A stretch of 64,000 nucleotides of DNA from Alphaproteobacteria bacterium (GCA_964291675.2 OZ219865.1:128001-192000); one strand, 5' to 3'. Shown: positions 5,495 through 14,612, counted from the first letter of the stretch. Notes: a model not told the origin generated them from the sequence alone. Translations and numbers: made by a program.

Positions 5495-6904
5495 TCACCC
5501 GAGATAGTCTTCGAGCTTCACCTTGCCCCAGTTGAGCGGGAAGGCCTCGCGGAAATCGTCGCCGCCGCGATGCGGCTTCGCGGTCGCGTCGATGCCGATC
5601 TTGCCGACCAGGCGGAACGGCTCGTGGCCGGCGAGCGGCGCGGCCGAGGGGTCGTAGGGCGAGCCCCGGGTGCCCGGCACCACGACGATGTCGCGCGCGG
5701 GGTCCACCCGCGTCGCCATCGCGCGGTAGACCGCGCCCGGGCTCTCGATGTCGGTGTCGGGGCTGATCGCCACCACCATCTTGGTGTTGAGCCAGGGCGC
5801 CCCCATGGCCTGCATCAGCGCGTCGTTGACGAAGCCCTCGCGCGGGTAGCTCACCTGCAGGATGCAGGAGACCGCCGCCCCCCAGCTCGGGAAGCGCACC
5901 TCGTGCACGGTGAGCCCGATCTCCGAGATCCGGTTGTACAGCACCGCCTCGTGGCAGAGCCTGGGCAGCGGCTGGTGGTCGGTCTCCGGCACCGTCTGGT
6001 GGTTGCGGTAGATCGGCCGGTCGCCGCGCATGGCGATCGCGGTCACGTCGATGCGCGGGATGTTCTGCTGCTGCGGCAGGAAATACATGGTGGGCGCGTT
6101 GACCCCGCCGGCCTCCTGCGTGCCCGTGAGGTCGACCAGCCCCTCGACGACGATCTCGGCATGGGCCGGCACGCGGAGCTCGACGGTCTCGCAGGGCACC
6201 ATGTCCACGTCCCGGCCCATGACCGTGCCCACCATCTCCAGCTCGCCCCAGAGATCCATGTGCATGCCGGAGAAATTGGCCATGATCTCGTAGGCCGGGT
6301 GGACCCCGAAGACCAGCGCGATCGGCATCTCGGTCCGGCCCATGGCGCGGTACTTGTCCATGATGATGTGGGTGTGCGGGGTGGCGAAGCTGATCCATCC
6401 GTGGCGCGGCCCGACCGGCGTGGTGCCGGCATGGGACGAGTTGTAGAACCCGGTCTCCGGGTCGCGCACGATGTTCATCGCCGAGATGTAGCGCTGGCCT
6501 TCCTCGGCCGAGTGGACCGGCACCGGCAGCTTCAGCCAGTCGACCTCCTCGCCGGTGCGCACGACCTCCTTGACCGGGCCGGTGGCGACGTCGACGAAGC
6601 CGCGCGGCGGCTCGCGCAGGCGCCGCGCCAGCGTCGGCAAGAAGTCCGCCTCGGCCACGCCGAGCGCGCGGCATTGCGACCAGCGGTGCTTGACCAGGAT
6701 GTCGCAGAGCCGGAAGCCGGGGTATTCGGCGATGTCCTCGAACAGGATCGGCCCCTCGGACTGGGCCGACAGCGCGCCGATATCGTCGATCGAGACCGGC
6801 TTTTCGATCACCGTCAGTATGTCGGCGTTGGTCTCCAGATAGCCGCGCAGATCGCAATCCAGCGCGCGGTTGGCGAGCTTGTGGGGGGACGCGGCGCCGG
6901 CCAT
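5495..6904 (-). CDS. UbiD-family (prFMN-dependent) decarboxylase
   Basis: PILFEDI, TGPVKEVV, LPVP-H, RDPETG, VPAHAEIVVEG, MATRVDPARDI, GKIGIDAT. Confidence 0.88.
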   Translation of the reverse strand: MAGAASPHKLANRALDCDLRGYLETNADILTVIEKPVSIDDIGALSAQSEGPILFEDIAEYPGFRLCDILVKHRWSQCRALGVAEADFLPTLARRLREPPRGFVDVATGPVKEVVRTGEEVDWLKLPVPVHSAEEGQRYISAMNIVRDPETGFYNSSHAGTTPVGPRHGWISFATPHTHIIMDKYRAMGRTEMPIALVFGVHPAYEIMANFSGMHMDLWGELEMVGTVMGRDVDMVPCETVELRVPAHAEIVVEGLVDLTGTQEAGGVNAPTMYFLPQQQNIPRIDVTAIAMRGDRPIYRNHQTVPETDHQPLPRLCHEAVLYNRISEIGLTVHEVRFPSWGAAVSCILQVSYPREGFVNDALMQAMGAPWLNTKMVVAISPDTDIESPGAVYRAMATRVDPARDIVVVPGTRGSPYDPSAAPLAGHEPFRLVGKIGIDATAKPHRGGDDFREAFPLNWGKVKLEDYLG

Positions 6905-6968
6905 GGTCGCCTCCTGGGAGTTGCGGCGGCAGGATAGGCCGACGCGCCCGCCCGACCAACCGGGCCGG

Positions 6969-7076
6969 TCCTGCGATACGCCGCCCTTCGGGCGGCTACT
7001 CAGGATGAGGGGAAGGGTGAACGGCCAGCGAGAGATTCCCTCATCCTGAGTAGCGGCGAAGCCGCGTATCGAAGGA
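6969..7076. repeat. Second REP-like family (CTACTCAGGATGAGGG / CCCTCATCCTGAGTAG inverted pair)
   Basis: Inverted pair; a related copy lies at 33023-33113. Confidence 0.75.
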
Positions 7077-7099
7077 CGGCCCCGCCTCGGCCCCAAGCC

Positions 7100-7208
7100 G
7101 TCATGCCCGGACTTGATCCGGGCACCCACTGGCGCCGCCACTTCTCCCTGCCGGGCGCGTCCCGGGCGGCGGGGCCGCATGGATGCCCGGAACAAGCCCG
7201 GCCATGAC
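7100..7208. repeat. REP-like palindromic inverted pair
   Basis: gtcatgcccggacttgatccgggcaccca ... tggatgcccggaacaagcccggccatgac. Confidence 0.85.
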
Positions 7209-7269
7209 GGGTGAAGTGACGCGGGGCGGGCTTTCCCGCCCGGGCGGGATTGGGCTAGCGTGCACGGCC

Positions 7270-8571
7270 ATGAAGCTCGGCATGTTCTACTGGCCCTGCG
7301 GCCACCACATGGCGGCCTGGCGGCATCCCGACGGGGTGGCCGATTCGGGCGCCAATATCGGCCACATCGTCGAGCTCGCGAAGCTCGCCGAGCGCGGCCT
7401 GTTCGACCTGTTCTTCATGGCCGATTCGGTGTCGTTCTGGCGCGGCGACCTCGAATCCATGACCCGCGATTCCTTCGGCGCCTGGATCGAGCCGTTCACC
7501 GTGATGTGCTCGCTCGCCCAGCACACCAGCCGGATCGGTCTGGTCTGCACCTCCACCACCACCTACGACCAGCCATACGCGCTCGCCCGGCGCTTCGCCT
7601 CGCTCGATGTCGCGAGCGGCGGGCGGGCGGGGTGGAACCTGATCACCTCGGCCAACAAGCTGGAGGCCGCGAGCTTCGGCCTCGACCGGCACCTGGAGAA
7701 GACCGAGCGCTACCGCCGCGCCCGCGAGTTCGCCCATGTGGTGCGCGGGTTGTGGAACTCCTGGGGCGAGGGGGTGTTCGTCCGCGACAAGGATTCGGGC
7801 CGCTATTTCGACGCGACCAGGCTGAACGTGCTGGAGCACGAGGGCGAGCATTTCCGGGTGCGCGGGCCGATCAACGTGCCGCCCTCGCCGCAGGGCGAGC
7901 CGGTGATGGTGCAGGCCGGCGCCTCCGACGACGGGCGACAGCTCGCCGCCGAGACCGCCGAGGTGATCTTTGGCGCGCAGCAGACCATCGAGGGGGCGCA
8001 AGCGTTTTATGCCGACGTGAAGGGCCGCATGGTTGCCTGCGGCCGCGACCCGGATTCGCTCAAAATCCTGCCCGGGCTCGCGGTCTGCGTGGCGCCGACG
8101 CAGGACGAGGCCGAGGACAGGTACGAGGCGCTGCAGGCGCTGATCGACCCGCTGGCCGGGATGCAGCTCTTGTCGCGGCGCATCGATTTCGACCTCACCG
8201 GCTACGACGTCGACGGCCCGCTGCCGGAGCTCCCGCCCAACAAGACGGTCTCGACAAGGGCGCAGCTCTTCGCCGAGATCGGGCGCCGCGAGAAGCTCAC
8301 CATCCGCGACCTCTACCGCCGCATCGCCGGCGCGCGCGGCCATTGCGAGATCGTCGGCACGCCCGAGCGCGTCGCCGACATGATGGAGCAGTGGGTGAGC
8401 GAGCGCGCCTGCGACGGCTTCAACATCATGCCGCCGGTCTTCCCCGCGAGCCTGGAGGACTTCGTCGACCTGGTAATCCCCGAGCTCCAGCGCCGCGGCC
8501 TCTACCGCACCGAGTACGAGGGCACGACGCTCCGCGAAAACCTCGGACTCACCCGCCCGCCCTGGCCGTAG
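7270..8571 (+). CDS. NtaA/DszA/SnaA-family LLM FMN-dependent monooxygenase
   Basis: GHHMAAWRHP, AERGLFDLFFMAD, PYALARRFASLD, GRAGWN, QAGASDDG, DGFNIMP, EYEGTTLRENLGL. Confidence 0.92.
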   Translation: MKLGMFYWPCGHHMAAWRHPDGVADSGANIGHIVELAKLAERGLFDLFFMADSVSFWRGDLESMTRDSFGAWIEPFTVMCSLAQHTSRIGLVCTSTTTYDQPYALARRFASLDVASGGRAGWNLITSANKLEAASFGLDRHLEKTERYRRAREFAHVVRGLWNSWGEGVFVRDKDSGRYFDATRLNVLEHEGEHFRVRGPINVPPSPQGEPVMVQAGASDDGRQLAAETAEVIFGAQQTIEGAQAFYADVKGRMVACGRDPDSLKILPGLAVCVAPTQDEAEDRYEALQALIDPLAGMQLLSRRIDFDLTGYDVDGPLPELPPNKTVSTRAQLFAEIGRREKLTIRDLYRRIAGARGHCEIVGTPERVADMMEQWVSERACDGFNIMPPVFPASLEDFVDLVIPELQRRGLYRTEYEGTTLRENLGLTRPPWP

Positions 8572-8641
8572 GGGGGCTTGCGCGGACCCGACCGGTCCGC
8601 GGTCGCGGCCCTCGCGTCCTTCCTCAACGTTCCCTCCCCCC

Positions 8642-8670
8642 GTCATGGCCGGACTTGTTCCGGCCATCCA
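8642..8670. repeat. Single REP-like palindrome
   Basis: gtcatggccggacttgttccggccatcca. Confidence 0.8.
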
Positions 8671-8680
8671 TGCCGCGCGC

Positions 8681-8728
8681 TTGACAACCACTATTTCCCA
8701 ACAATATTGTTGCCAACAATTTCGTTGG
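8681..8728 (+). promoter_or_regulatory. Putative sigma70 promoter with tandem operator-like palindromes
   Basis: TTGACA at 8681 and TATTGT at 8705. Perfect palindrome CAACAATATTGTTG (8699-8712) followed by imperfect CCAACAATTTCGTTGG. Confidence 0.55.
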
Positions 8729-8738
8729 GGAATCGGCC

Positions 8739-10007
8739 ATGCTCAGAAAGGGCGGCGGCAACTGGGTCGAGGGAGACCGGTTCTTCGACCGGGAGTTCGA
8801 GCTCCAAGCGCTGGAAGAGCGGGTCCGGGAGGGCATCCACACCCTGCTGACGGCGCAGCGGCGCATGGGCAAGACCAGCCTCGTGCGCGAGCTTCTGCGG
8901 CGGCTGGGCGACACGGGCGGGTTCGAGACGGTCTTTGCCGACCTTGAGGCCGCCACGGACCCGGCCGATGCCATCGCCGAGATCGGCGTCCAGGCGCGGC
9001 CGCTGCGCGGCGCGTGGGGCCGGATCGAGTCCGGTTTCGTCAACGTCCTGAGAGCGGCCGGCGACCGGATCGAGGAGCTTTCGCTGTCCGACCTCAAGGT
9101 GAGACTGCGCGCGGGGATCGATGCCGGCAACTGGCCGCAGCGAGGCGATGCGGTGTTCGCGGCCCTGGCGGCGAGCGACCGGCCCGTCGTTCTCGCGCTC
9201 GACGAGCTGCCGATCCTCGTCAACCGGCTGCTCAAGGACGAGACGGGCGTCGTCACCCCGGAGGGGAGGGGGCGGGCGGACTCGTTCCTGAGCTGGCTGC
9301 GCCGGAACGGGCAGACCCATCGCGGCCGGGTCACGATGATCCTGTCGGGCAGCGTCGGGCTCGAACCGCTGCTGGAGCAGGCCGGGCTCAGCGCCCATGC
9401 CAACATTTTTTCCGCCTACGATCTCGAACCCTGGAGCGAGGAGACCGCCGCGTCCTGCCTGGCGGCGCTCGCCGGGACCTACGGCATCGGGCTCCCGCCG
9501 GAGGTCGGCGCGGACATGTGCCGGCGCCTGCGCTGCTGCATCCCGCACCACGTGCAGATGTTCTTCGACAAGCTTCACGACCGGCTCCGGCGTGACGGCC
9601 GGCGGGACGCAGCGCTGGAGGACTCGGCGTGGGTCTACGGGCAGGAGATGCTGAGCGTGCGCGGTCAGGTCGATCTGCAGCACTACGAGGGCCGGCTGGA
9701 GACCGTCTTGGGGCGGGCGGGATATCCTGTCGCGCTTGAGCTGCTGACCGCGGCCGCGGTCGAAGGACTCCTGGACGACGATGCGCTCGACCGCTACGGC
9801 GCGCATTTCGCGGACCGGGCCGAGGACGGCGCGCCCTCGGTCGAGCATGTGCTGCACGTGCTGGAACATGACGGCTACCTGGAGCGGCGGGAGGGCGGCT
9901 ACCGGTTCGTCTCGGGGCTGCTGGAGGACTGGTGGCGCGGGCGTTACGGCCGGGGCTTCGTCGCTGCCGTCGAGCCTGCCGGACGACCGCCGGGAGCGGA
10001 CCGATGA
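8739..10007 (+). CDS. P-loop ATPase (STAND/archaeal-ATPase-like)
   Basis: FFDRE-EL pre-motif, Walker A AQRRMGKTS, Walker B VVLALDELP, C-terminal LEHDGYL (wHTH-like). Confidence 0.8.
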   Translation: MLRKGGGNWVEGDRFFDREFELQALEERVREGIHTLLTAQRRMGKTSLVRELLRRLGDTGGFETVFADLEAATDPADAIAEIGVQARPLRGAWGRIESGFVNVLRAAGDRIEELSLSDLKVRLRAGIDAGNWPQRGDAVFAALAASDRPVVLALDELPILVNRLLKDETGVVTPEGRGRADSFLSWLRRNGQTHRGRVTMILSGSVGLEPLLEQAGLSAHANIFSAYDLEPWSEETAASCLAALAGTYGIGLPPEVGADMCRRLRCCIPHHVQMFFDKLHDRLRRDGRRDAALEDSAWVYGQEMLSVRGQVDLQHYEGRLETVLGRAGYPVALELLTAAAVEGLLDDDALDRYGAHFADRAEDGAPSVEHVLHVLEHDGYLERREGGYRFVSGLLEDWWRGRYGRGFVAAVEPAGRPPGADR

Positions 10008-12466
10008 CCGTGACGGCGAGAAAGTACAACCCGGGCTTCCTCACCGACGACGAGCTGGTGGCGTCCTTCTGCGTGCGAACCGACGAGTTCGAGTCGATGA
10101 TGGAAGCCCTGCGCGAGCCTTCGGGCGATTCGAACGCACATCAGATCGTCATCGGCCCGCGCGGCAGCGGCAAGACGAGCCTTCTGCTGCGGGTCGCGGT
10201 GGAGATCCGGCGGGACGCGCAGCTCTCCACCCGTTTCTTCCCCGTCGTCTTCGCGGAAGAAAGCTACGAGGTCTCCACCGCCGGCGAGTTCTGGCTCGAA
10301 GCCCTGTCCCGCCTCGCCGACCGGGCGCCGAACGGCGAAGACGGCCCCGACCTGCGCCGCACGTTCGAGGAGCTGCGCCAAATCCGGGACGACCGGACGC
10401 TGGGGGATCGTTGCCTCGGCGCGCTCCAGGATTTCGCCGACCGCGAAGACCGGCGCCTCGTGCTGATGGTCGAGAACCTCAACATGCTGTTCCGGGACAT
10501 GGCGGACCGGGAAACGGCGGGGTGGCGGCTGCGCCAGACGCTCCAGACCGAGCCCCGCATCCTCCTGCTGGCGAGCGCGACCAGCCGGTTCGACGAGATG
10601 GAGGACCCCAAGCGCGCGCTCTACGACCTGTTCCGGACGGTCGCGCTGCGTCCCCTCGACGCGGAGGATTGCGCGACCCTCTGGCAAACCGTCACCGGCC
10701 AGGAACGGGCGCCGGGCACGATCCGGGCCTTGCGTATCCTTACCGGCGGCAGCCCGCGATTGCTCACCATCGTCGCCCGCTTCGGCGCGGAGCTGTCGTT
10801 TCGCGAGCTGATGGCCGACCTGCTCGACCTGGTCGACGACCACACCGAGTATTTCAAGAGCCACCTCGACGCCCTGCCGGCGCAGGAGCGCCGCGTCTAT
10901 CTCGCGCTTGCCGAGCTCTGGAAGCCGGCCACCGCGCGCGAGATCGCCGACCGGGCGCGGTTGGAGACCAACAAATGCAGCGCGCAGCTCGCCCGCTTGA
11001 CCGAGCGCGGCGCGGTCGAGGTGACCGGCGGCACGGCGCGGCGCAGGCTCTACTACCTCTCCGAACGGCTCTACAACATCTACTACCTGATGCGCCGCAC
11101 CCGCGGCCCGGCGCCCATGATCGAAGCTTTGGTTCGCTTCATGGAGGGGTGGTACTCGGTCGACGAGTTGAAAGAATTCGGCGCCCGGATGGCGCGGGAA
11201 GCGCCGGGTCTCGACGACGGGACGCTGGGGCTTTACCGGATTGCGTTTCAGCAACTCCTCCGACTGCCGTCGCTGGCGCCGCACCGCGAGGAATTGCTTT
11301 CGCTTGCGTCATGGATCGGTGACATCGGTCCCGATGATGACCCTCACGCCCCGGCTGCCAACTTGACTGCTAGGGCCGTCTTCGACAGGGCGATCGAACT
11401 CGCGACCGACGGGCGCCTTGAGGAGGCGGTAAATGCTTGGGATGAGGTCATTTGGCGTCTACGGGACAAAGGGGCTCCAACAGATCTTGAGGGGGTCGCG
11501 ACAGCGCTCCTGAACAAGGGTGTGGCGCTAGGCAAGATGGACCGGCCAATCGACGCACTCGCGACGTGGGATGAGGTCGTTCAACGTTTCGGTGAGACCG
11601 ATGATCGACCTCTGGTTCTCGCGGTCGCGGAGGCTCTTTTGAGCAGGGGTAACCTGCTACTGGAGTTGAACAGGCCGGGGGAGGGGATTGAGGCGTGGGA
11701 TGAGGTCGTCCGGCGAAATGTGTCGAGCGAATGGCCGTCCCTTCGCGTTAAGGTGTCAACAGCACTACTTGGCAAGTGTGCTGCCCTGTCGGGGTTGAAT
11801 CGGCCTGAAGAAGCCTTGGCCGTCTGCGACGAGATCGTACAACGCGATGCGAAGAACGATGACCCGCAGGCCATTGGGATACTCGCCTGGGCACTCCTAC
11901 ATAGAGGCAATGTGTTTCTCCGTCAGAGACGGCTCGACGAAGCGTTGGCGGCATGGGAAGAGATCGTACGACGTTTCGAGGCCTCTGATCTGCCGACGCT
12001 TGGGGACTCAGTCGTGATGGCGCTAGTGGGAAAAGCAGCGCTCGATTTGATAAATGGCCGAGCACAGGCTGCCATTGTTGCTATCGACCAGATGCTGCAC
12101 CGGCAGGACGTAGGATCACCGGAGGTAAGATTGCAGGGACACACGATCCGCGCTTGGGCGTACTTGGCGGATGGCGAAATCGAGGCGTGTACGAACGATG
12201 TGGCATCGATACTTGCGATCTTGCCGGACTTCGGTTCCATCCCCAAGGAAGTGCTCGATGGATTGTCCGCGTTCTCCATGGACCTGGGTTCGCAGAATAT
12301 GCTCGATCTGATCCAGGCGTCGCCGGCGGTCGACCTGCTGCTGCCGCTGACGACGGCGCTGGAAATGGAACTCGGGCTGGAACCACGCGTGGCGAAGGAG
12401 GTGGAGGAGGTCGCCGAGGACATCCGTCGCGACTTGGCGGAGCGGCGAAAGGCGCGGCGCGGGTGA
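10004..12466 (+). CDS. STAND-like ATPase with winged-helix and TPR repeats
   Basis: ATGA overlap with the upstream gene. Walker A GPRGSGKTS, Walker B LVLMVENL, GGSPR motif, wHTH-like ATAREIADRARL, and about 6 TPR-like repeats (ALLNKGVAL...ALATWDEVVQRF). Confidence 0.82.
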   Translation: MTVTARKYNPGFLTDDELVASFCVRTDEFESMMEALREPSGDSNAHQIVIGPRGSGKTSLLLRVAVEIRRDAQLSTRFFPVVFAEESYEVSTAGEFWLEALSRLADRAPNGEDGPDLRRTFEELRQIRDDRTLGDRCLGALQDFADREDRRLVLMVENLNMLFRDMADRETAGWRLRQTLQTEPRILLLASATSRFDEMEDPKRALYDLFRTVALRPLDAEDCATLWQTVTGQERAPGTIRALRILTGGSPRLLTIVARFGAELSFRELMADLLDLVDDHTEYFKSHLDALPAQERRVYLALAELWKPATAREIADRARLETNKCSAQLARLTERGAVEVTGGTARRRLYYLSERLYNIYYLMRRTRGPAPMIEALVRFMEGWYSVDELKEFGARMAREAPGLDDGTLGLYRIAFQQLLRLPSLAPHREELLSLASWIGDIGPDDDPHAPAANLTARAVFDRAIELATDGRLEEAVNAWDEVIWRLRDKGAPTDLEGVATALLNKGVALGKMDRPIDALATWDEVVQRFGETDDRPLVLAVAEALLSRGNLLLELNRPGEGIEAWDEVVRRNVSSEWPSLRVKVSTALLGKCAALSGLNRPEEALAVCDEIVQRDAKNDDPQAIGILAWALLHRGNVFLRQRRLDEALAAWEEIVRRFEASDLPTLGDSVVMALVGKAALDLINGRAQAAIVAIDQMLHRQDVGSPEVRLQGHTIRAWAYLADGEIEACTNDVASILAILPDFGSIPKEVLDGLSAFSMDLGSQNMLDLIQASPAVDLLLPLTTALEMELGLEPRVAKEVEEVAEDIRRDLAERRKARRG

Positions 12467-12520
12467 CCCCTGGGCACCCTCCGCAGGGTGCCAGCCGCGC
12501 CCCGACTGAACACGCCGTCC

Positions 12521-12757
12521 GTCATTCCGACCGGAGCTGAGAAATCTCGCGCCCGGCGTCCCACCCCGTCATGGCCGGCCCCCGGATCGAGTCCGGGGGT
12601 GATCCGGCCATTCATGCCGCGCCTCCGCCCGCGAGGCGGCCGGTCGGAAGAGGTGGCAGCGCCCGTGGGTGCCCGGATCAAGTCCGGGCATGACGTGGGG
12701 GGTGGCAAAGAGATTTCTCCGCTCCGCCTCGCTCCGTCCGGGTCCGGTCGAGATGAC
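12521..12757. repeat. Composite REP cluster (GTCATTCCGACCGGAG...GAGAAATCTC family enclosing a GTCATGGCCGG pair)
   Basis: Outer inverted pair gtcattccgaccggag..gagaaatctc / gagatttctc..ccggtcgagatgac; inner REP pair at about 12568-12695. Confidence 0.7.
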
Positions 12758-12826
12758 GACGGGGGGAGGGCCCTCCCCCATTTACCATTTGCCGCGCCGC
12801 TCCGTTTCGCCCCATAAACTCCGGCC

Positions 12827-14476
12827 ATGCTGAGCGCGCTCTCCGTCCTCCGACGCGGACCGCCGGCCGACCCGGTGTCGGGCTGGTCGGTGGCGACGCT
12901 CGCGCTCGGGCTCGTCCTGATCGGGCCGTTCGTCGCGCTGCTCTACGCGATGACCGGGGATTCGGGCGGGCTCTGGCTGCATCTGATGGAGACCGTCTTT
13001 CCGCGCTATGTCGGCAACACGGTGGCACTGATGGCGGGCGTCGGGTCGGTCAGCCTCGCCTTCGGGCTGAGCACGGCGTGGCTGGTCACGCGCTACGAGT
13101 TCCCGTTCTCGCGGCTGCTCGACTGGGCGCTGCTGCTGCCGGCGACGGTGCCGGCCTATATCATCGCCTACGCCTATACCGACCTGCTGGAATATGCCGG
13201 GCCGGTGCAGGGGCTGCTGCGCGAGGCCTTCGGCTGGTCGTCGGCGCGCGACTACTGGTTCCCCGAGATCCGCTCGCTCGGCGGCGCCGTCCTGGTGATG
13301 GGCTCGGTGCTCTACCCCTATGTCTATCTGATGGCGCGCACCGCGTTCCGCCTCACCCCCGCCTCCTACTACGAGGTCGCGCTGCTGCACGACCGCAATG
13401 TCGCCTTCTCGGTCGGCATCCCGCTGGCGCGCCCGGCGATCGTCGCCGGGCTGGCGCTGGTGCTGATGGAGGTGGTGTCGGATTTCGGCACGGTCGAGTA
13501 TTTCGCGGTCGAGACGCTGACCCTCGGCATCTTCAATGTCTGGCTCGGCATGAACAACTTGACCGCCGCGGCGCAGATCGCGGGTGTCGCCTTCGTGTTC
13601 ATCCTCGGCCTCTTGTTCATCGAGCGGCGCGCGCGCGGGCAGCAGCGCTTCTTCGATCCGTCGACGCCGCGCGAGGGGCTGCGCCCGATGCGCGTCGGCG
13701 GTGCGAAGGCGGCGCTCTGCATCCTGGTCTGCCTGGTGCCGCTGACCGCGGGCTTCGCGGTGCCGGTGGGGGTGCTGCTCTGGTTCGTCGCCGCCGGGCT
13801 GTCGTCGACCGATTACGGCGCGCTCGTCGCCACCGCCGTCAACTCGCTCTCGGTCGCCTTCGCGGCGGCGGCGATCGTCATGGCGGTGGCGCTGGTCACC
13901 GTGATGGTGGTCTCCTACAAGCGCCACCCTGCGCTCGGCGCGCTGACCGCGGTCTCGGCGATGGGCTATGCGTTCCCCGGCACCGTGCTCGCCATCGGCG
14001 TGGTGGTGTTCGCCGGTGCGCTCGATTCCGCGGTCGAGGCCGTCGTCGAGCGCGTGCTCGGCGCCGGGTTCGACGGGCTCCTGATCGGCGGCGTCGCGCT
14101 GCTGGTGGCGGGCTACGTGGTGCGCTTCCAGGCGATCGGCTACGGCGCCATGGTGGCCGGGGTGAAGCGGCTGCCGCCCAACATCATGAACGCGAGCTAC
14201 GTGCTCGGGCGCGGCTTCTCGCGCAGCCTGGTGACGCTGGCGCCGCCGCTGTTGCGCAAGTCGATCCTCGCCGGCGGGCTGCTGGTCTTCGTCGACGTGA
14301 TGAAGGAGCTGCCGATGACCCTGCTGCTCCGCCCGTTCGATTTCGAGACCCTGGCCACCTATGTCTACCAGTTCGCCACCGACGAGCTGCTGGAGCACTC
14401 GGCGCTCGCCGCGCTCGCCATCGTCGCCGCCGGCCTCGGCCCGGTGATCTGGATGAACGCCTCGCAGCGGCGGTGA
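12827..14476 (+). CDS. Fe(III) ABC transporter permease (FbpB/SfuB-like)
   Basis: Duplicated permease architecture with PAYIIAYAYTD, LYPYVYL-AR, SDFGTVEYF, KELP-TLLLRPF-FETLAT. Confidence 0.92.
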   Translation: MLSALSVLRRGPPADPVSGWSVATLALGLVLIGPFVALLYAMTGDSGGLWLHLMETVFPRYVGNTVALMAGVGSVSLAFGLSTAWLVTRYEFPFSRLLDWALLLPATVPAYIIAYAYTDLLEYAGPVQGLLREAFGWSSARDYWFPEIRSLGGAVLVMGSVLYPYVYLMARTAFRLTPASYYEVALLHDRNVAFSVGIPLARPAIVAGLALVLMEVVSDFGTVEYFAVETLTLGIFNVWLGMNNLTAAAQIAGVAFVFILGLLFIERRARGQQRFFDPSTPREGLRPMRVGGAKAALCILVCLVPLTAGFAVPVGVLLWFVAAGLSSTDYGALVATAVNSLSVAFAAAAIVMAVALVTVMVVSYKRHPALGALTAVSAMGYAFPGTVLAIGVVVFAGALDSAVEAVVERVLGAGFDGLLIGGVALLVAGYVVRFQAIGYGAMVAGVKRLPPNIMNASYVLGRGFSRSLVTLAPPLLRKSILAGGLLVFVDVMKELPMTLLLRPFDFETLATYVYQFATDELLEHSALAALAIVAAGLGPVIWMNASQRR

Positions 14477-14612
14477 GCGCTATCCAATCGGGTTGGATCA
14501 TATTCTGGGGCAGCGAATTGGTTTCTGCATTCTTGGGGTAGGCAACTTTCGAGAATGCGGGCGATGGCGTTCCACAGTCCCTCCACCGTGCGATCGGCGG
14601 CACGAGCGAACC
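14477..14612 (-). mobile_element. IS630-family transposase 3' remnant
   Basis: Minus strand reads RAADRTVEGLWNAIARILESCLPQECRNQFAAPEYD, resembling the IS630 C-terminus (RKAAERTVEGLW-AIG...PQEC-NYFAAAGYD) from memory. Confidence 0.6.

Follow-up and report, generated by a model that had tools for sequence, protein, structure and literature searches.

A two-gene module was analyzed in a stretch of 64,000 nucleotides from an Alphaproteobacteria bacterium (GCA_964291675.2 OZ219865.1:128001-192000). This whole stretch is referred to as the window, and all coordinates are counted from its first nucleotide. The module consists of gene 1, coding for an AAA+ ATPase, and gene 2, coding for a STAND-type NTPase with a tetratricopeptide repeat (TPR)-like array. 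The initial annotation, made from the sequence alone, had described the two as a coupled pair of STAND-like ATPases without a visible effector and had proposed a sensing or defense role. The module and its promoter comprise the following features:

8680..8733, + strand: promoter inside an operator-like array of four 9-bp GTTGNCAAC-type sites with 6-bp spacers (period ~15 bp)
8681-8686, + strand: -35 box TTGACA, from a promoter scan
8703-8708, + strand: -10 box AATATT, from a promoter scan
8739..10007, + strand: gene 1, 422 aa; AAA+ ATPase, ORC/Cdc6-like "archaeal ATPase" (COG1672/PF01637-like), with a C-terminal winged helix
8853-8879, + strand: gene 1 Walker A, AQRRMGKTS, residues 39-47
9186-9206, + strand: gene 1 Walker B, VVLALDE, residues 150-156
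10004..12466, + strand: gene 2, 820 aa; STAND-type NTPase with a nucleotide-binding oligomerization module (NOD), winged helix-turn-helix (wHTH), arm, five 43-aa TPR-like repeats and a conserved C-terminal helical domain
10154-10177, + strand: gene 2 Walker A, GPRGSGKT, residues 51-58
10457-10477, + strand: gene 2 non-canonical Walker B, LVLMVEN (LVLMVENL, residues 152-159)
10880..11098, + strand: gene 2 TrmB-like wHTH, residues 293-365 (Pfam TrmB; helices and wing in the AlphaFold2 (AF2) model)
11300..12250, + strand: internal stretch with a foreign composition, interpreted as an exchanged sensor cassette
11411..12055, + strand: five tandem 43-residue (129-nt) TPR-like repeats, residues 470-684 (DNA repeats at 129-nt spacing, families D1 and D3)
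12101..12463, + strand: conserved C-terminal helical domain, residues 700-820 (ASPAxDLLLPLTTALExELGxEPRVAxEVEEVAEDIRR)

The open reading frames (ORFs), the motifs AQRRMGKTS/LDE and GPRGSGKTS/VENL, the wHTHs and the ATGA overlap between the genes had all been named in the initial annotation, and sequence, alignments and models agreed with it on each. It had overlooked the promoter/operator array, the repeat period of 43 aa and the conservation of the C-terminal domain. Gene 2 starts with the ATG at 10004, which overlaps the TGA of gene 1 as ATGA. A GTG further upstream, at 9932, was considered as the start and rejected, as the start lies at MTVTARKYNPGF, or at a close variant of it, in 24 of 25 aligned homologues.

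In the sample, gene 1 was never met without gene 2. A scan for gene 1, restricted to one genome per species, yielded 154 relatives, of which 80 loci were kept. In each of these 80 loci, all gathered through gene 1, a homologue of gene 2 followed directly. The junction measured -10 to +23 nt in 69 of the 80, and the exact ATGA overlap recurred in 28. The pairing is far above chance, and the co-conservation that had been set as a test of the initial annotation was borne out. Clustering of all flanking ORFs revealed no third conserved gene, the largest outside cluster being present in 10 of the 80 loci. A second, distant lineage of the two-gene architecture was represented by L095 (G007), L096 (G019) and L097 (G040), with 42-45% identity to gene 1; gene order and gene 2 domains were kept in all three of these paralogous pairs. 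A word-indexed search retrieved 1,953 relatives of gene 1 and 3,801 of gene 2. The NOD was common to 4,397 representative clusters (E <= 0.001), and in nearly all of the best 150 relatives its match began no more than 30 residues from the N-terminus.

Some copies of gene 2 were incomplete. Counted from the aligned start, it spans only 277-544 aa in L043, L048, L059 and L079, four of the 75 loci that are not truncated by the end of a contig. The frames in L043, L059 and L079 stop at 277, 505 and 544 aa, respectively, and represent decayed copies. The copy at L048:11261-13744 is likewise decayed, its gene 2 being broken by ~2.4 kb between alignment residues 333 and 331.

In the family alignment of gene 1, K45/S47 and D155/E156 were invariant, as was the motif CCIPHHVQ at residues 266-273. 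An AF2 model built on alignment A1 (40 sequences) reached a predicted local distance difference test score (pLDDT) of 85 and a predicted template-modeling score (pTM) of 0.82, and displayed an AAA+ base and lid followed by a winged helix. Foldseek matched this model best to 2qen (E 3.9e-11, TM 0.59/0.69) and next to 2fna (E 1.8e-9, TM 0.55/0.65), followed by ORC/Cdc6 and RuvB. A sequence search of solved structures returned 2qen as the best match of gene 1 at an E value of only 0.28, and none for gene 2. In Pfam, just sub-threshold AAA_16 and ATPase_2 matches were found for gene 1. The latter (PF01637) scored 23.1 bits against a gathering score of 33.2 and covered residues 15-68 only; a whole-genome family search gave 25 bits, again below the cut-off. 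NCBIfam contained no family for gene 1 at E <= 0.1, the orc1/cdc6 model TIGR02928 included, and the protein atlas returned "ATP-binding/archaeal ATPase" clusters only. In these models, the resemblance of gene 1 to ORC/Cdc6 initiators is one at the level of the fold only.

The closest characterized folds belong to the COG1672/PF01637 proteins PAB2304 (PDB 2qen) and SSO1545 (PDB 2fna), which have the AAA+ base, the lid and the C-terminal winged helix in common with gene 1. Proteins of COG1672 often end in DUF234, which is classed as PD-(D/E)XK in PMC3424549. Gene 1 differs in lacking it: PF03008 (DUF234) was absent at E <= 0.1, and the model ends with the winged helix and has no alpha/beta nuclease fold. 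A further difference from the COG1672/PF01637 proteins is the STAND-TPR gene that always comes directly after gene 1.

To gene 2, Pfam assigned AAA_16 with 33.5 bits (cut-off 32.6), a TrmB-type wHTH at residues 294-350 with 27.1 bits (cut-off 25.6) and the families TPR_1/2/16/12/6 above their cut-offs. TIGR02928 of NCBIfam reached 16.8 bits against a cut-off of 181.3. No LuxR-type, SARP or ArsR-like output domain was found by Pfam, the sole wHTH being the internal TrmB-like one of the NOD. Residues G51, G54, G56, K57 and T58 were invariant in 25 of 25 sequences (alignment A2), which fits the Walker A pattern GxxxxGK[ST]. V156-E157-N158 were equally invariant (25/25) and depart from the canonical Walker B pattern hhhhD[DE]: the acidic residue is shifted and followed by Asn. 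TGGSPR at residues 247-252 was also invariant in A2. The AF2 model built on A2 (25 sequences; pLDDT 79, pTM 0.46) was matched best by Foldseek to 6mfv, the STAND-TPR protein PH0952 (E 5.2e-9), and second to Avs3 (8dgc); ORC/Cdc6, NLRP9, Apaf-1 and plant NRC resistosomes were among the further matches. Gene 2 has the layout of a STAND protein, namely a nucleotide-binding domain (NBD), a helical domain with GxP and a winged helix, followed by a repeat sensor.

Folds and profiles upheld the description of the locus as a coupled pair of NTPases, one STAND-like and one ORC-like: gene 1 is an ORC-like AAA+ ATPase and not a second STAND protein. Profile-profile comparison with hhalign aligned gene 1 and gene 2 in the P-loop region only (43 columns, probability 82%). 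ORC-like proteins carry GGxPR, and gene 1 differs from them by CCxPH in its place. In the AF2 models, CCxPH of gene 1 and GGxPR of gene 2 both lie between the second and third lid helices. Because the two motifs occupy the same lid place, their topology suggests that CCxPH is the equivalent of GGxPR. The two proteins thereby show complementary departures: gene 1 has DE in Walker B but CCxPH, and gene 2 has GGxPR but EN in Walker B.

The TPR array of gene 2, also part of the initial annotation, was verified by the Pfam TPR families and by the 43-aa units. A hidden Markov model counted five units in the window and 2-16 (mode 14) in 68 of 71 full-length relatives; the three most distant ones (L064, L076 and L077) have ordinary 34-aa TPRs and no 43-aa units. 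Across 243 units, positions 19, 22, 24-28, 31, 38 and 41-42 were the most variable, and the framework positions were conserved. The array is followed by a C-terminal domain of ~120 aa, which was kept in all relatives aligned. Its block-mean pLDDT was 74-94 and mostly above 80; neither a Pfam family nor a protein atlas match of at least 0.9 was found for it. Among the 39 loci that rank nearest in NOD score, the NOD was 78-89% identical to that of the window, the repeat array 33-46% and the C-terminal domain 52-69%. From this distribution we infer that the 43-residue repeat array is the variable sensor part of gene 2.

The array of the window also differs from its surroundings in composition. 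Over 11204-12253, GC content at third codon positions (GC3) is 0.58-0.70, down from 0.86-0.98, and behind this stretch it returns to 0.82; total GC also dips. The same-site orthologue in the genus relative G010 has ~90% DNA identity across gene 1 and the NOD, then 11-64% per 100 nt over 11300-12300, and 84-91% again beyond. Because the breaks in GC3 and in identity coincide, they indicate that a sensor segment of ~1 kb has been replaced by recombination. A lower GC content as a general trait of the repeat array was considered and rejected: it holds in the window, yet in only 41 of 68 loci.

Directly in front of gene 1, the promoter scan identified TTGACA-16-AATATT in the window (10/12), with three promoter-like sites against 0.3 expected; a transcription start is predicted ~7 nt past 8708. 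The four array sites are CTTGACAAC, TTTCCCAAC, GTTGCCAAC and GTTGGGGAA, and the array ends 5 nt from the ATG of gene 1. The 60 nt 5' of gene 1 were conserved over the loci as 9-mers of the GTTGNCAAC type with 6-bp spacers. The first 9-mer includes the -35 box TTGACA, the spacer behind the second is the -10 box (consensus ATATT), and the last half-site ends 10-11 nt 5' of the ATG in 55 of 77 regions. A composite pattern, CAAC-N6-GTTGNCAAC-N6-GTTG with at most one mismatch, was present 5' of gene 1 in 79 of 81 regions. Throughout the 1.37 Mb of the 80 loci, 120 matches fell within the upstream regions and one outside them. In the organism's own genome (4.8 Mb), the composite site occurred once, at the promoter of the pair, where it was read on both strands; the reversed-pattern control gave no match. 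The single outside match was located in L048, ~250 nt upstream of the gene 1 match. Rfam detected no RNA family at E <= 0.1 over 8300-13000.

The array travels with the module across phyla, and its predicted binder should therefore be encoded by the module itself. This implies that a module protein, gene 1 or the wHTH of gene 2, binds the putative operator, and the position of the array over the promoter implies autorepression. The distant paralogues retain the CAAC-N6-GTTG grammar around TTGACA. Their half-sites, GTTGACAAC-N6-GTTGAA ... CAAC-N6-GTTGAA, are related yet distinct, which suggests that paralogous modules have operator dialects of their own.

Of 11 other genomes of the genus, four contained gene 1 (45-91% identity, one copy syntenic), and so did four of 300 class genomes drawn evenly. 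In the own genome the pair is present once, on the chromosome; four assemblies hold two copies each. All 80 loci stem from assemblies of uncultured organisms. The full-length gene 1 rows carry seven phylum labels, and the gene 1 tree requires 10 changes of label (minimum 6), with Nitrospirota, Binatota and Acidobacteriota rows nested among Alphaproteobacteria. Such labels are subject to mis-binning; several cross-phylum copies are nonetheless on chromosome-scale records, and in chromosome-level Nitrospirales, Binatia and Bryobacterales records gene 1 was 64-77% identical. To judge from the genome counts, the tree and these identities, the pair is patchily distributed and has spread horizontally between distant bacteria. 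A binning conflict was observed for L063 and L066, which represent one sequence, identical in its upstream region, its broken gene 1 and its gene 2 of 890 aa, filed as Dehalococcoidia and Candidatus Binatia metagenome-assembled genomes; the phylum labels of short contigs are unsafe in this respect.

In the window, the pair is located at a synteny break (5495-8571 and 12827-14476). The UbiD-like and LLM-oxidoreductase-like genes on its left are adjacent in four genus relatives without the pair. The ABC permease gene on its right lies 240-770 kb away in two of these and on another contig in the other two. Simple insertion between conserved neighbors was rejected, the ABC permease being elsewhere in the four pair-less relatives. 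Repeats resembling repetitive extragenic palindromic (REP) elements flank the module:

8636-8680: related REP-like copy, left of the pair
12540..12760, no strand assigned: dispersed REP-like repeat, flanking and outside the module (cluster seen at 12564-12700)

Further intergenic copies were observed at 6963-7229 and 14475-14601, and six-frame translations of the repeat yielded recurrent pseudo-peptides of the "MAGLVPAIH/SGHDG" type. With 40 of 307 candidates scored, a 221-nt query matched the own genome at least 112 times; each genus relative searched contained dozens of copies. The REP clusters that the initial annotation had seen bracketing the unit are real. They are not specific to the pair, the downstream element alone accounting for the at least 112 genome matches.

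Across the 80 loci, eleven ORFs in 10 loci were transposase, integrase or TraG nearest neighbors. Druantia DruA-domain proteins (PF14236, E 1e-37 to 1e-38) adjoin the pair in two unrelated loci, at L009:6703-8472 and L056:13925-14881; neither was matched by PADLOC at E <= 1e-10. At L019:5676-8627, the pair is adjoined by a 983-aa protein with multiple WD40 propellers, which may be another repeat-sensor protein.

No description of the pair was found in open-access papers and bioRxiv preprints, the accessible text of PMC7159879 and PMC13581612 included; the supplementary tables of the latter may classify the STAND clade. The pair is a STAND-TPR/AAA+ architecture with recognized folds and without a family match in curated defense models. 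The closest relative of gene 2 among solved structures, PH0952 from Pyrococcus horikoshii (6mfv, MalT clade), has the same order of NBD, GxP helical domain, winged helix, arm and TPR-type sensor. According to PMC6468293, it rests as a monomer and oligomerizes upon binding of the inducer. Gene 2 differs from it by the Walker B VEN, the 43-aa units, the conserved C-terminal cap and the obligatory AAA+ partner gene upstream. Like gene 2, Avs proteins (Avs3, PDB 8dgc) combine a STAND core with a long, mostly TPR-like and highly variable C-terminal sensor. PMC13581612 describes extensive horizontal transfer of Avs, with sensors shared or swapped among clades, and reports that KpAvs8 has degenerate ATPase motifs too and that deletion of Avs effector domains abolishes cell death. 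Horizontal transfer and sensor swapping are thus common to Avs and the pair. Avs proteins, however, are products of single genes and bear effectors such as nuclease, protease, SIR2 or TIR domains, whereas gene 1 and gene 2 form an obligate pair and gene 2 has neither a fused effector nor a match to a PADLOC Avs model. Plant sensor/helper NLR pairs (NRC network) offer an analogy only: they comprise two linked NTPases of the same superfamily, one of them with a variable sensor. In contrast to them, the locus has as its gene 1 an ORC-like AAA+ ATPase instead of a second STAND protein, it contains no pore-forming or executioner domain, and the interaction between its products is putative.

The best explanation of the locus is a two-gene module of NLR-like (STAND) type that is self-contained and moves horizontally. 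With a probability of roughly 0.5, we favor the interpretation that it encodes an autoregulated NLR-like sensor with a DNA-binding ATPase partner and that it is probably a conflict or defense module. Gene 2 would be the sensor, composed of the N-terminal NOD, the variable TPR-like array and the conserved helical cap. It would bind a ligand, most likely a foreign protein from a phage or mobile element, and would then assemble into an ATP-bound oligomer as solved STAND-TPR proteins do. Since the invariant VEN in its Walker B suggests slow or absent hydrolysis, gene 2 would be a switch rather than a motor. Gene 1, whose translation is coupled to that of gene 2, would be the DNA-binding partner and the output, and we infer physical contact between the two proteins. 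A complex prediction for gene 1 with gene 2 residues 1-450 gave a score of 0.01 (mark 0.32), which bears neither way on binding. In the resting state, gene 1 or the TrmB-like wHTH of gene 2 would sit on the 15-bp-periodic GTTGNCAAC array, which encloses the -35 box, the -10 box and the start region of what would be the operon's own promoter, and would keep expression low. Activation of gene 2 would release or re-deploy gene 1, resulting in de-repression and/or ATP-dependent assembly on DNA.

A conflict or defense role is favored because the sensor is diversified, its cassette is exchanged, the distribution is patchy and no target genes travel with the pair. The sensing or defense role put forward in the initial annotation is in line with the variability of the sensor, the replaced cassette, the patchiness and the spread; the searches of PADLOC and of viral and plasmid sequences gave it no backing. 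The absence of a recognizable nuclease or TIR effector, claimed there as well, was confirmed with Pfam, NCBIfam, PADLOC and fold searches. Likewise, none of the searches of Pfam, PADLOC, NCBIfam and solved-structure sequences matched the pair to a characterized housekeeping family; such a match had been named in the initial annotation as a refutation.

Several observations weigh against a defense role. The searches just named revealed no effector domain of any kind in gene 1 or gene 2, nor was one found in nine long relatives, one of which has a 174-aa N-terminal extension. Longer or fused versions of gene 1 were looked for without success, which is weak evidence. The best PADLOC match of the pair, mad8 at E 2.6e-4, was not considered real, and no Avs or bNACHT model matched; the NCBIfam match to DS41_1_antiphage (17.3 bits against a cut-off of 370) was not real either. 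Two peptide patterns retrieved no gene 1 relative from IMG/VR, and PLSDB plasmids contained matches of 22-25% identity only and none above. The count of 80/80 for the pairing is conditional on gene 1, through which all of these loci were gathered. For a gene in an arms race, both gene 1 and the NOD show unusually high conservation. PH0952, the nearest among solved folds, is described by its authors as a predicted transcription factor (PMC6468293).

The genomic neighborhood points in the same direction, the nearest neighbors of the pair in the 80 loci being mostly varied housekeeping genes. Among the nearest-neighbor ORFs, taken as one per side in mutually related loci, 12 of 141 were matched by PADLOC at E <= 1e-10. 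Four were discounted as generic-domain cross-hits. Of the eight plausible ones (8/141), three stem from a single context, and the majority are untested "PDC" candidates. A named defense system stands beside the pair in only 2 of the 80 loci (NsnB-like and SoFic), close to the published background of 0.0153 (1.5%; PMC13581612). The enrichment near defense genes that the initial annotation had proposed as a check is at best weak.

A more specific version of the defense reading, put forward tentatively, is that of an effector-less bacterial sensor/helper immune pair, in which the STAND-TPR receptor would signal to the ORC/Cdc6-like AAA+ ATPase and the ATP-driven assembly of the latter on DNA would itself be the output. 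This output could consist in self-amplifying de-repression of the operon and/or in a block to the invader's or the host's replication or transcription. The complementary departures of the two ATPases would then reflect a hetero-oligomer with divided labor. The sensor cassettes of the receptor would be exchangeable, and the module, together with its private operator, would pass between members of at least seven phyla in uncultured communities.

Because the effector is missing, the neighborhood signal is weak and the closest fold is transcription-factor-like, a reading without any immune role stays alive, and we regard it as possible but doubtful. It takes the pair as a ligand-responsive transcription regulator of the MalT/PH0952 type in a split design. 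The TPR array of gene 2 would sense a metabolite or host-derived signal, and DNA binding by the gene 2 wHTH and/or gene 1 would target the pair's own promoter and perhaps unlinked genes. The predicted transcription factor 6mfv has an N-terminal DNA-binding domain (PMC6468293). MalT and AfsR are STAND-TPR regulators. The wHTH of gene 2 above the TrmB cut-off, the conserved operator-like array over the promoter, the lack of an enzymatic effector and the mostly housekeeping neighbors are in agreement with regulation as well. However, no conserved target operon travels with the pair, and the composite site was confined to the pair's own promoter in the own genome. An array of 2-16 repeats, a sensor with ~40% identity next to a core with ~80%, and cassette replacement, which moreover occurs between near-identical backbones, are unexpected for a fixed ligand. 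The patchy distribution across phyla, with several copies in some genomes, also argues against this alternative.

The ORC/Cdc6-like fold of gene 1 with its winged helix and the direct repeats of 15-bp period beside it recall a replication system. Gene 1 could be an ORC/Cdc6-like initiator or loader acting on an iteron-like array, akin to archaeal orc1-adjacent origins or plasmid iterons, with gene 2 as its regulator; the pair would then be a maintenance or replication module of a cryptic mobile element. Its horizontal spread and the mobile-element genes as nearest neighbors in 10 of the 80 loci would fit. We consider this improbable: the array measures only ~55 bp and lies exactly over a sigma-70-type promoter, no other conserved element genes accompany the pair, the own genome has a single chromosomal copy, the two patterns retrieved nothing from viral contigs and plasmids contained no match above 25% identity, and TIGR02928 was not matched by gene 1 and was missed by gene 2 with 16.8 against 181.3 bits. 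Very improbable is a symbiont host-interaction factor, in which gene 2 would be a eukaryote-like TPR protein manipulating an animal host and the ATPases would serve as chaperone or regulator: the TPR-like array, the origin of 80/80 loci from uncultured-organism assemblies (one record naming Spongia) and the occurrence in several phyla, as for genes exchanged in one community, would suit it, but both proteins begin with 50 hydrophilic residues that lead directly into the P-loop fold, no signal peptide or secretion-associated domain was evident by eye (no predictor was run), and the architecture is that of a cytoplasmic STAND switch. These last two readings are less likely than the defense or the regulator reading.

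STAND/NLR-type receptors are central to the immunity of animals, plants and bacteria. To our knowledge, characterized bacterial STAND receptors carry their own killing or signaling domain. The receptor described here is without an effector and is instead tied to an ORC-like ATPase and a private operator. If the module is a true immune system, its output would be an undescribed mechanism based on DNA binding or ATPase assembly, and it would offer a natural case of sensors swapped as modules. As a regulator, it would be a mobile, self-contained signal-transduction unit without an evident regulon, which would itself need explanation. The module is compact (3.8 kb) and has its own promoter, so that it would be directly testable in a laboratory host.

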